Positions 1-3,827 of a stretch of 64,000 bases of DNA are shown piece by piece. The notes below the pieces were generated by a model. It searched no databases. It had not been told where the DNA came from and worked only from the letters and a program-made list of their open reading frames with translations. Within the stretch, counting starts at the first letter, position 1; every line of letters begins with the position of its first letter. Position numbers and translations under genes: made by a program. This stretch comes from Neodothiora populina (lineage: Eukaryota): positions 806,001-870,000 of the forward strand of contig NW_027191402.1 in NCBI RefSeq assembly GCF_041146345.1, read 5' to 3'.

Positions 1-2
1 CC

Positions 3-206
3 GCGTGTGAAGCCTTGGATGCCAAGGATCGAGAGACGGTATCGAAATGGCTTGAGAGGTCGTATACCAAGAGTGGACTGGGCTCGTTCAATACTGCCAG
101 GGACGTCGCGGAGAAAGTCTGGGCTGCGCGAGGAAGGTCTGGCAATGCGGATATGTCGTGGCACGATGTTCTCGCGAGGGGAAAGACGGCGTTGATTCTG
201 AGTTGA
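3..206 (+). CDS. C-terminal fragment of a fungal-specific (Zn2Cys6-associated, Fungal_trans_2-like) transcription factor; the gene starts upstream of the window
   Basis: Frame from nt 3 reads ACEALDAKDRETVSKWLERSYTKSGLGSFNTARDVAEKVWAAR...MSWHDVL...LILS*. The 'ACEA...R....W......G......A......VW...W..h' pattern is typical of the C-terminus of this domain. Confidence 0.65.
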   Translation, partial: ACEALDAKDRETVSKWLERSYTKSGLGSFNTARDVAEKVWAARGRSGNADMSWHDVLARGKTALILS

Positions 207-345
207 AGCTGAGCAGCACTCCTGCGCGAATCTTGCAATTGTCGTCCCCGTGACCATTTTGTAACAGAACAGAACATGGCTTCTGAAGGTTCACAGCGAT
301 ACTCACAGTAGCACCCAGTAAATATGTTGTCTGTATCTTAATCAA

Positions 346-372
346 TTTTTTTTTTTTTTTTTTTTAAAAAAA
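346..372. repeat. Homopolymer T20 followed by A7, between two convergent 3' ends
   Basis: Directly visible: T at 346-365, A at 366-372. Confidence 0.9.
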
Positions 373-895
373 CGTCGGTACCTTTGCAGAAAAGCGCAGA
401 GGCAAGGAAAATGGGAAAGAAAAAGGTCAACTCCCTCAGTTTTAGAGTTTTCGATTTTCGATTTCTATTTTTCTTTGGTAATCTTTCTTCGCAAGCTCTC
501 TCAATAGAGAGACAAAACGCGGGTACAAATGCGTGATCGATGAACACATGGTTTCTCGACTCTCGTCTTGCTTTGCTTTTCTGCTTGAAGCCGAGCTTTC
601 CATGGCAACGGTGAAGAAAGCAGACACAGGGAGAAGAAGGACAAAAAGAAAATCAATACACGTCCATCTTGCGGCTCATTTCGGGTCTGCCGGAGCTATA
701 GTCTCTGGGGACGGTCCTCTCGAAACCCCTGACCCTACTCGTAGCGCCGCCGCCTTTCTTCATGGCCGCGAAGCAATTCATACAAGGTCTCAAGAGCAAC
801 AGTGAGGCGAGCAGGAGAAAACAAGCTACCAGAACAACGAACAAAGCAATGCCCACAGTGGGCCAAAAGGACGATCCACGGTGACTACCGGAGAG

Positions 896-2414
896 TCACT
901 GTTCCTTTTCGTAGCCTTCTGGCTTGGGCATGTTGTTGAGCTCAAAGTAACGATTCGTGCCTAGATTCGAGGTATGTCAGCACAATTGATCAATTTACAG
1001 AAATACAAAAAAGCAGACTTACAAGAATAGCCGTTCCAGTCAAAGTTCTCCTTAGGGTTGCAGTGGCACTTGAGGTCGAGTCTCTTCTGCTCGCCAGTCG
1101 GGCAGTGAGTAAAAGGAACGTGGTAGTAGGCAATGTCATTGAAGAAATGGATCTCGTCCTTGGGAAGCATGAGACCTGCGGCGATGGAGTGGACGGGCGC
1201 GTCACCCCAGCGTTCGTAGAAGAAACCACCCTCGTGGTCAAGGAAGTCAAAGTAAGAAATGTAAGCATCAGATCGGAGCCTGATCGCAAATCATTAGCTC
1301 GTTGGACTAGACAAAATGCAAAAAGGTATTTACGTACCAGTCCAGGTTGCCAACCTCAAAGTTGGACCAAAAATGACAGTGGTTGTACGTCTCACCACCA
1401 TCGTCGGACAAGAAGTTCATGCTGTTGTCCTGAGCAATGTGCTGGGGGTTGGCCTTGATCCACTTCTTGGTGCTGTCCCAGAGAGTGGGGATGGTCTCGA
1501 CGTATTCGTAGAGACTCAAAACGAAAGAGTACTTCTTCTTGTTGTCGGCCATGAACTTGAATGGATCGTATGCAATGTCACAGAAAAGCTCAATGGAGGG
1601 CTCGACACGCCAGTACCACTCGTAGTCAAGGAGCAGAGGGTGTCTGAAGAAGAAGCCAGACTCATAACGACACATGTGGCGGTAAGAGACGCTGTCTCCG
1701 TAGATGATCTTTCTGGCGGCCATGTCGGCGCGAGTCTTGGCGGCCTTGTCCTGGTCGATGAAGTCCGGGAAGGACCAATGCTCTTTCGGGATCTCGCCAT
1801 ACTTGGTCTTGCCAGAAGTCAAAGCGGACGTGACCTTCTTGAACTGCTCGTCGAAAGGCTGGTCGTTGAGGAAGACCCAGTCGTAGTTGTATGCGTGGTT
1901 GAAGCGATCCTCGACCTGGCGGATGGAGCGGGCGATCTCCCAGACATCGCTGTTGCGGGCAAGGGTGACAAAGGTGGCGTTCATGCGCTCACCAGGAGCC
2001 GTGGGCCTCAGAGTGGTGGATTGAAAGTTGGGGGTGGTGGTGTGGACGGCGGCGGCAGCATCATCGGCGGCGGCAGGATTTGAGGCTGAGGTGTCTTCCC
2101 TGACGTCCTCGGCTTGAGATCCGCGCCATCGTGATGACGAGTCCTTGATGAGGTCTTGGGCCTTGTTGGCGTAGGATTGGGGGACGGACGAGGATGAAGA
2201 GATGAAGAAGACGATTACAAGGCACTGCAGGGTAAGCAGAAAGTCAGCTGGTGTATGAGAATGCGATGAGATTGGGATGAAGATGAATATGGTGATCGTC
2301 AAAAAAGGATGATCATGATGGCCCGGGCAGAATAGAACATGTATGGAAAATGTATGGTGTGCATACCACAAAGGCAAAAACGATGTAGCGCAGATAGCGC
2401 GTGGTTCCAGCCAT
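896..2414 (-). CDS. KRE2: Alpha-1,2-mannosyltransferase, GT15 (KRE2/MNT1/KTR family), 4 exons
   Basis: Exons 2414-2367, 2224-1338, 1279-1023 and 960-896, all introns GT..AG. N-terminal type II anchor ([23 protein letters not shown]). GT15 motifs [37 protein letters not shown] and [13 protein letters not shown]. Ends ...[11 protein letters not shown]. Confidence 0.93.
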
Positions 2415-3018
2415 GTTGTCGCTGTCTTCTGGCGTGATGCGCGGAGGCTTGCGCTCTGAGGAGACCGCTGCACGAGCTGGGTCTGCAGACGAGAGCGACG
2501 AGCGGAGATCAGTAGACTCGACAGAATTGGATGTGTCTGTGTCGTGTGGCGCACGACGACGACGAAGGGTAGTCGGCGAAGTGTTGATGCTACCTGTCAC
2601 CTTGAAATCGTGGCGGTGTTGTTATGCGAAGGGAGGTTTGCGAAGTTGAGAATGAACCGAAACAAAGAAAGTCAGATAAGGGAAATAATCCTCGGATGGG
2701 ATCAATAAAAGACCCAAGGCAGAGGTCGGTTGAGAAGTGAATAGAAGGGGGAAAGGGAGCGGAGGTGGTATGAGCTGGGAGCTAAAGTTGTAACGTGTGC
2801 AGCGGCGGACACGGTATAAAAACTGGAGGAGACTCGCACTCCCCGAAGGTGAGGTACAAAAGCCAAAAGGATAAGGTAAGAATGGGAAGTGTAGAGATGA
2901 CAAGTGATGACACGATAAGCGAGATGCTCGTGTACTGTGCAATCAACACTACCTTGCTTGTACAGAGGTATTGCGAAGTGTTGTTCAGCTCTGCTATTTT
3001 CTCTGGGCTGGGCTTCTC

Positions 3019-3724: not shown

Positions 3725-3782
3725 GTCGTCGTCGTCGTCGTCGTCTGTGCCTCCTGCAAGGCAAAGTGGCATCGCATCTGAT

Positions 3783-3827
<45 letters not shown>
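3725..3827. repeat. Microsatellites (GTC)7 at 3725-3745 and (ATC)15 at 3783-3827, upstream of PAT1
   Basis: Directly visible. Confidence 0.92.

Follow-up and report, generated by a model that had tools for sequence, protein, structure and literature searches.

A conserved UGA-CU stop context and a selected transmembrane extension point to programmed readthrough of a fungal GT15 mannosyltransferase gene

Results

An extended reading frame behind a TGA-CTC stop codon

The DNA analyzed here is a stretch of 64,000 nucleotides from Neodothiora populina (NCBI RefSeq assembly GCF_041146345.1, contig NW_027191402.1, positions 806,001 to 870,000), referred to as the window and numbered from its first letter. 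Its minus strand carries a four-exon gene of the GT15 family (Kre2/Mnt1-type) with a canonical product of 418 residues. The stop codon of this gene, TGA followed by CTC, is followed in frame by a further 80 sense codons that encode a predicted second transmembrane helix and a basic tail. Programmed UGA readthrough yielding a doubly anchored isoform is the best reading of the comparisons described below, and we put its probability at roughly 0.8. Readthrough of this gene at its UGA-C had been proposed in a preliminary description of the DNA, and the proposal is supported by a conserved TGA-C, a conserved frame, and a synonymous bias in related loci.

The last exon ends with E-K-E-Q and the TGA, after which the 80 sense codons (895–656) run to a second in-frame TGA. 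Translation of positions 653–961 of the minus strand bears out, to the base, what the preliminary description had given for the stop (898–896, in the context CAG TGA CTC) and for the frame open over 80 codons to the TGA at 655–653. The same holds for the 22-residue hydrophobic helix with its juxtamembrane Cys and basic residues, seen here as the segment 856–791, the R-P-C that follows it, and the 10 K/R of the tail. An ATG ahead of the helix is indeed absent, the first in-frame Met of the extension being its residue 39, C-terminal of the helix. The Kyte-Doolittle maximum of the helix over 19 residues is 3.17. An AlphaFold2 model of the read-through C-terminus (alignment A1) places a helix at residues 32–70 of 102, with block values of the predicted local distance difference test (pLDDT) of 81, 97, and 88 over residues 31–60, and a disordered tail with a pLDDT of about 50–57. 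The G+C content is exon-like in 601–900 (0.53–0.56) and amounts to 0.34–0.42 further downstream, in 301–600.

A single open frame of this kind is weak evidence because post-stop frames are often open among relatives that lack the feature. In 46 such relatives whose post-stop stretch ends within the locus, the frame stays open for at least 47 codons in 15 (33%) and for at least 80 codons in 4 (9%), so that the chance of about 2% previously put on 80 open codons was too low. An open frame plus a hydrophobic stretch in one sequence alone would not exceed chance; its conservation in relatives, as judged from the loci compared below, does. As for the letters themselves, a contig from DNA run X1 matched positions 379–2500 with 0 differences and so agrees with the TGA, although this run is a possible source of the assembly and hence not an independent confirmation. 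Three other sequencing runs match short conserved or upstream pieces only, and the extension lies outside their coverage.

Stop context and extension in related loci

Relatives were collected by searching metagenome contigs with exon 3, which gave 80 fungal loci with 79–89% identity (the best 80 of 521 confirmed). The last exon and the stop were located by script in 77 loci and by hand in two loci without intron 3 (L006 and L007), whereas L051 was left out because it ends too early. The gene end was thus readable in 79 of the 80 loci, with homologous C-termini, and removal of identical copies left 70 distinct related sequences (68 plus L006 and L007).

All 23 distinct loci in which TGA is followed by C (CTN in 21, CGG in 2) have an in-frame hydrophobic extension. 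The extension was found in none of the 3 distinct loci with TGA followed by A or T (L044, L046, and L055), none of the 31 with TAA, and none of the 13 with TAG, among which L008 is a special case. When scored by a hydropathy criterion, leaving aside L006 and L007, the feature was seen in 20 of the 24 TGA loci and in none of the 44 others (Fisher p = 1.3e-13, uncorrected for relatedness). In all 22 extension loci, counting the window, position +4 is C, which bears out the expected conservation of UGA-C in orthologous 3′ regions, and position +5 is T in 20 of the 22 and G in the 2 with CGG; the manually read L006 and L007 show TGA CTC. Directly after the stop, 12 of the 22 have the codon CTG and the other 10 have CTC, CTA, CTT, or CGG. 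In relatives with TAA or TAG, +4 is G or A (39/44).

Two of these loci call for comment. The TGA-C locus L002 ends after 18 extension codons and is hydrophobic by then. L008, tallied as TAG, is actually a TGA-C carrier in which exon 4 contains one more stop, a TAG ahead of the TGA, and the extension of L008 was found at E 2e-16 by a profile built without this locus. This premature TAG (L008:3290-3474) lies in the last exon, 11 codons ahead of the usual TGA-C, and is followed by an intact extension, and the catalytic domain of L008 is identical in protein sequence to that of L009. The TAG may mark a genuine null or truncated allele present in the metagenome population, or else reflect an assembly error.

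In a search of the six frames of the related loci with the extension profile, no TAA or TAG locus other than L008 had a match better than E 0.1; there is therefore no sign that non-carriers gain the same tail by splicing. Two loci have post-stop stretches that resemble parts of an extension. In L018, a TAA-G locus of the extension-less clade, 72 codons are in frame after the stop, and their far end is hydrophobic and then reads R-R-R-Q-N-R-F, reminiscent of the tail; this stretch was not scored by the extension profile. L043 (TAG) has a late hydrophobic stretch. Either stretch may be a remnant or have arisen by chance.

In a quick maximum-likelihood tree computed from 400 catalytic-domain columns, the carriers fall into one group of 17 loci, another of 5, and the single locus L071, which sits in the opposite half of the tree. 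The sister of the 5-locus carrier group is a clade of 18 TAA loci whose stops are the strong TAA-G. Placing all carriers in a single clade was rejected on this quick tree (approximately unbiased test, p = 0.016). The history of the trait involves at least 3 changes, in which gain and loss are indistinguishable.

Substitution patterns in the extension

The frame of the extension is open for 47–80 codons in 18 of 18 complete carriers, compared with a median of 31 codons in the other two sense frames, and all indels in the carrier alignments are whole codons, with 0 frameshifts; the frame is thus conserved, as the preliminary description had expected. The substitutions are synonymous-biased, again as expected. 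Differences by codon position (1/2/3) were 11/3/32 between L005 and L012, 6/0/19 between L012 and L013, 12/8/32 between L062 and L078, 7/3/14 between L031 and L039, and 3/3/8 between L005 and L009. In moderately diverged carrier pairs, the proportion of nonsynonymous differences (pN) was 0.05–0.17 compared with a proportion of synonymous differences (pS) of 0.20–0.72, giving a raw pN/pS of 0.12–0.27. In catalytic exon 3 of the same pairs, pN was 0.000–0.015. Judged by these values, the extension is less constrained than the enzyme, yet clearly constrained. Coding on the opposite strand was also considered and is contradicted by the antisense frames, which are stop-free in merely 4, 8, and 1 of the 18 carriers.

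The first four post-stop codons encode L-A-G-R in L005, L009, L012, and L013, with Leu written as CTG or CTT and Arg as AGA, AGG, or CGC. Selection appears to extend to the fourth codon past the stop. The extensions share a layout consisting of a flank of 0–15 residues (often with L-x-G-R and W-P), an uncharged core of mostly 19–29 residues, R-P(-C), and a tail. R-P is the most conserved motif, with alignment position P59 hardly varying (90% or more); the Cys is found in many loci but is missing from some. Summed over 20 complete extensions, K/R number 165 in the tails and D/E 36; several relatives have an R-[FY]-x-[DE]-E-R-[WY]-like tail motif, and an [IV]-Y end is common to the window, L004, L062, L069, and L078. 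An in-frame Met ahead of the helix occurs in 1 of 24 extensions and is not conserved. Taken as a whole, these patterns indicate that the extension is a conserved, selected coding region of fixed layout that is presumably translated.

With a profile built without the clade of the window, the window extension scored 17.3 bits (E 0.0018 over 7536 open reading frame (ORF) pieces); its clade-mates L020 and L004 scored 29.8 and 19.3 bits, and the best unrelated piece 12.7 bits. We accept the window extension as a probable member of the family, on modest but positive grounds, because this score is accompanied by TGA-CTC, W-P, R-P-C, and the shared end.

Termination signal

Statements on papers cited here by PMC number refer to excerpts of those papers. 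In Ustilago maydis, a UGA with CU directly after it is enough for efficient readthrough, the first two bases downstream of the stop chiefly set the efficiency, and UAA or UAG lowers it (PMC4207609). The TGA CTC of the window fits this core motif, UGA-CU (PMC4207609). The further claim of the preliminary description that UGA-C is the leakiest stop context agrees with ribosome profiling in Neurospora crassa, where it is the leakiest four-base stop (PMC12790415). With programmed readthrough, most ribosomes would terminate at the UGA and release the 418-residue protein, and a minority would pair the UGA with a near-cognate tRNA and translate 80 codons more, which would give 499 residues.

The 90 nucleotides after the stop gave no signal of a stimulatory RNA structure. 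The mean z-score of the minimum free energy was 0.14 in 20 carriers versus 0.52 in 46 others, these scores being crude, as they are based on mononucleotide shuffles, and pertaining to the downstream side of the stop only. An Rfam scan of window 1–1000 at E up to 1 returned one sub-threshold match to a long noncoding RNA, nothing relevant, and no selenocysteine insertion sequence. Recoding of the UGA as selenocysteine was rejected on this last result; fungi are without selenocysteine machinery (PMC4207609).

Alternative explanations

The extension could be a chance open frame, that is, a T-rich 3′ untranslated region that reads as hydrophobic and is never purposefully translated. The frequency of open post-stop frames noted above favors this idea, as does the lack of a protein database match for the window extension alone. 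Set against it are the third-position-biased substitutions and codon-sized indels, a common layout in 23 distinct relatives that is exclusive to TGA-C, the exon-like G+C content of 601–900, unlike that of 301–600, and pS values of 0.2–0.9 among loci, which argue against near-copies from one species; we consider chance highly improbable. An unannotated splice event or alternative last exon might instead connect the GT15 frame to the helix and remove the stop. Intron 3 is merely 62 nucleotides upstream of the stop, and alternative splicing and readthrough are reportedly used interchangeably in fungi to append C-terminal targeting signals. However, E-K-E-Q and L-A-G-R are conserved right up to the stop and from the first codon after it, so that an intron of normal size would not fit between them. 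Candidate acceptors in the window are out of phase, as the preliminary description had noted when it found no in-frame alternative acceptor, and nine loci (L005, L006, L007, L009, L012, L013, L035, L041, and L080) are intronless here and keep both TGA-C and the extension. A splicing origin would therefore come as a great surprise. Translation of the downstream frame on its own, through non-AUG initiation or reinitiation at CUG/CUN, would produce a small single-pass membrane protein. Among non-AUG start codons CUG works best, and it is the codon most often found directly after the stop; yet the 10 of 22 loci with other codons, the near absence of a Met before the helix (1/24), and a frame offset of zero to the upstream ORF in 24 of 24 do not fit, and a separate ORF would have no reason to need TGA over TAA or TAG upstream. 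We give this explanation very little credence.

Editing of the stop in the mRNA from adenosine to inosine (A-to-I), with UGA read as UGG (Trp), would allow the extension to be made from edited transcripts and would likewise account for a conserved in-frame extension without a start codon. Hundreds of stop-loss editing events are reported in Neurospora crassa and Fusarium graminearum, some of them conserved across Sordariomycetes (PMC13123824). The fungal enzyme is biased toward UAG, often in hairpin loops (PMC13123824), whereas all 24 carriers, the window among them, have TGA as the stop and not one has TAG. In addition, a test of the downstream side found the 90 nucleotides after the stop to fold no more stably than shuffled sequence, and the invariant +4 C and the +5 T match the readthrough motif, all of which makes editing improbable. 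A functional rival grants that readthrough occurs and takes the hydrophobic tail to mark the protein for degradation or quality control instead of anchoring it a second time. Hydrophobic C-terminal tails that arise from translation of noncoding sequence are degradation signals. Many fungal stop-loss extensions also destabilize the protein, but these extensions are disordered, not membrane-spanning (PMC13123824). A degradation signal would moreover need neither a long-kept leaky context nor a fixed helix length, R-P, and an R-[FY]-x-[DE]-E-R-like motif, and we regard this function as unlikely.

A number of points weigh against programmed readthrough to a doubly anchored isoform. The case is a comparison of DNA sequences, and the protein collections yielded no protein with the extension. 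The 80-residue extension gave 3 candidates among proteins of near length and 525 among longer proteins, with 0 scoring in either set, and a profile of 20 read-through C-termini, for which 8000 candidates among longer proteins were scored, gave 0 at E up to 0.001, which is weak evidence. The nesting among carriers of the 18-locus TAA clade, which is without the extension, suggests that the extension is dispensable in some lineages. Independent pairs number 2 on well-supported branches and 5 on all branches, too few for the stop-type association to reach significance by independent contrasts; for this reason the weight of the case is on selection within carrier clades and not on the raw association. 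The leave-out score of the window is modest, and L071, L080, L031, L039, and L011 are at background level when left out of the profile, so that these five appear to share the layout only and not demonstrable sequence similarity. Selection in the lineage of the window itself cannot be measured, since its nearest relative, L002, spans 18 extension codons only and since comparisons with L004, L020, and L062 are saturated at synonymous sites (pS 0.70–0.87, pN 0.41–0.49). Lastly, the flank before the helix is also basic (43 K/R over 20 extensions), which somewhat weakens the positive-inside argument for the orientation of the helix.

A search of the extension against 1.84 billion representative proteins returned 2 matches at E up to 0.001. 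Both are internally repetitive proteins with 4–6 matching stretches and were judged to be chance.

Gene structure and surroundings

The coordinates of the gene and of its extension are collected in Table 1. Exon 2 matches Pfam PF01793 (Glyco_transf_15) with 353.5 bits (cut-off 25; E 1.6e-105; profile positions 30–269 of 325), and exon 3 with 91.5 bits (E 8.7e-26; positions 271–325 of 325). The nearest solved structure is that of Saccharomyces cerevisiae Kre2p/Mnt1p (1S4N, E 1.1e-83), followed by Aspergillus fumigatus Ktr4 (7BOO, E 1e-64) and yeast Ktr4 (5A07, E 3.2e-48). Because of the PF01793 match and because 1S4N is closest, ahead of both Ktr4 structures, the name KRE2 used in the preliminary description is fair at the family level. 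The translated N-terminus has a short polar stretch, about 18 uncharged residues, and a Ser-rich stem, consistent with a type II layout. The predicted product is a Kre2/Mnt1-type GT15 α-1,2-mannosyltransferase with an N-terminal signal anchor, and we infer that it is a type II Golgi protein with a lumenal catalytic domain. At 1620–1640 (minus strand, exon 2), a motif reads E-P-S, within W-R-V-E-P-S-I-E. This site would be the position of the metal-binding E-P-D of yeast Kre2p.

Table 1. Positions of the GT15 gene and its extension in the window
Feature	Position	Strand	Description
Exon 1	2367..2414	minus	16 codons, ATG at 2414-2412; short cytosolic N-terminus and beginning of signal anchor (predicted)
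Intron 1	2366-2225	minus	Donor GTATGC at 2366, acceptor AG
Exon 2	1338..2224	minus	Remaining N-terminal hydrophobic anchor, stem, and bulk of GT15 catalytic domain
Intron 2	1337-1280	minus	Donor GTACGT, acceptor AG
Exon 3	1023..1279	minus	C-terminal portion of GT15 domain (PF01793)
Intron 3	1022-961	minus	Donor GTAAGT at 1022-1017, acceptor AG
Exon 4	899..960	minus	Final 20 full codons of canonical 418-codon protein
Putative leaky stop and context	893..898	minus	TGA (898-896) then CTC (895-893); translation of 653-961
Extension codons 1-13, lumenal flank (predicted)	857..895	minus	Carries family L-x-G and W-P positions; alignments
Extension codons 14-35, predicted second transmembrane helix	791..856	minus	22 residues; uncharged core V-G-I-A...L-L-L-L
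R-P-C	782..790	minus	Immediately C-terminal of helix; alignments
Extension codons 39-80, basic tail	656..781	minus	Probably disordered, predicted to be cytosolic; 10 K/R versus 4 D/E
Second in-frame stop	653..655	minus	TGA; would terminate extended 499-residue form

Intron content varies widely among the carriers, and TGA-C and the extension persist. In the nine loci listed above as intronless next to the stop, intron 3 and sometimes all introns are absent, and the ORF is uninterrupted over 322–589 codons from the first Met, in contigs of 2–135 kb. Three of them (L035, L041, and L080) are contigs of about 2 kb with an uninterrupted full ORF and 225–314 nucleotides past the second stop. These contigs might be taken for transcripts; they are without poly(A) ends, and intronless genomic relatives exist.

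Downstream of the gene, an open frame on the plus strand that enters from the window edge (1–206) appears to belong to a convergent gene ending at about 206, roughly 450 nucleotides from the second stop of the extension. Between the two genes, at about 372–343 in minus reading, there is a run of about 23 A with 7 T ahead of it. Upstream of the gene are two repeats, (GTC)n of about 6 units at 3727–3746 and (ATC)n of about 15 units at 3783–3827. Contigs of 161–253 nucleotides from runs X3 and X6, labeled as a different organism (B), match window 2226–2487 with 0–2 differences at a high depth of 36–288. These matches cover the 5′ untranslated region, exon 1, and intron 1, and the remainder of the gene is absent from both runs. 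Noncoding sequence this similar in runs of another organism is odd and may stem from contamination, from an amplicon, or from a shared element.

Discussion

If the GT15 gene of the window is subject to programmed readthrough, the topology of the long form would follow from that of the enzyme. With the GT15 catalytic domain in the lumen, the added helix would serve as a stop-transfer segment and leave the basic tail in the cytosol, giving a long isoform held in the membrane by both of its ends. The tail, with its Arg-rich, R-x-R-like runs, could carry sorting or retrieval information, and the juxtamembrane Cys could be S-acylated. The result would be a minor pool of enzyme with retention, retrieval, or turnover unlike that of the canonical form. 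A Vps74/GOLPH3-type or di-lysine motif was also looked for in the tails by eye, but the pattern was inconsistent and was dropped. Taken one step further, the extension may be an old, repeatedly retained topology switch, in which readthrough gives a doubly anchored hairpin enzyme and an Arg-rich, possibly S-acylated tail redirects it or alters its shedding or turnover; for this fuller scenario we see about even odds.

The evolutionary signature is clean, in that a leaky TGA-CU and a selected extension of 47–80 codons have been retained together in many divergent fungi, and in that in one clade the extension is absent alongside a switch to strong TAA-G stops. To our knowledge, well-supported functional cases of programmed readthrough in cellular genes are few, and the known fungal ones add peroxisomal signals to soluble enzymes. 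If the present reading is correct, the fungal UGA-CU system would widen from peroxisomal import to the secretory pathway, and this would be, as far as our literature search shows, the first readthrough-added membrane anchor on a glycosyltransferase. One gene would then supply two enzyme pools in a ratio tunable by termination efficiency, the retention of Golgi enzymes would acquire a new mechanism open to testing, and annotations in these fungi would omit an isoform of different membrane topology. The enzyme acts in cell-wall and protein O-mannosylation, which is important for fungal growth and host interaction. Provided that the long form is made, the gene would also be a natural reporter of termination fidelity in filamentous fungi.

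Among the closest known systems is the peroxisomal readthrough at UGA CU(A) described by Stiebler et al. 2014 (PMC4207609), which uses the same stop signal without needing downstream structure. There too, a minor, C-terminally extended isoform conserved across fungi carries localization information, and the stop is never UAA or UAG (PMC4207609). The extensions of that system are short, end in a peroxisomal targeting signal (PTS1), and belong to soluble cytosolic metabolic enzymes of fungi and animals (PMC4207609), whereas the GT15 extension has 47–80 residues with a predicted transmembrane helix and a basic tail, belongs to a presumably lumenal type II enzyme, and is predicted to affect topology and not import. 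A-to-I stop-loss editing, as in DBF2, shares with the GT15 gene a conserved C-terminal extension in filamentous ascomycetes with unchanged DNA, but acts on UAG within hairpin loops, occurs only at the sexual stage, and adds disordered, destabilizing tails (PMC13123824). The GT15 gene always has UGA-C at the stop and shows no excess of structure downstream of it, and its tail would form a membrane helix.

S. cerevisiae Kre2p/Mnt1p and the KTR family share with the window gene the GT15 domain and, as far as the sequence of its product predicts, a short N-terminal cytosolic stretch with a membrane anchor, and Kre2p is a type II medial-Golgi protein (PMC2200012). A C-terminal membrane segment or readthrough is not described for the yeast enzymes in the KTR/MNT1 literature that we found, and our literature search, in which not all journals were covered, returned no paper that connects GT15 enzymes with readthrough. 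Readthrough extensions in Drosophila and plants can carry membrane-related or localization features, with transmembrane segments predicted, but concern other genes in other kingdoms, with no glycosyltransferase evident in the excerpts (PMC3840789, PMC9293766). Set beside these systems, the mechanism is of a known kind; what seems new is the gene family in which it would operate and what it would add, a second anchor on a Golgi glycosyltransferase.

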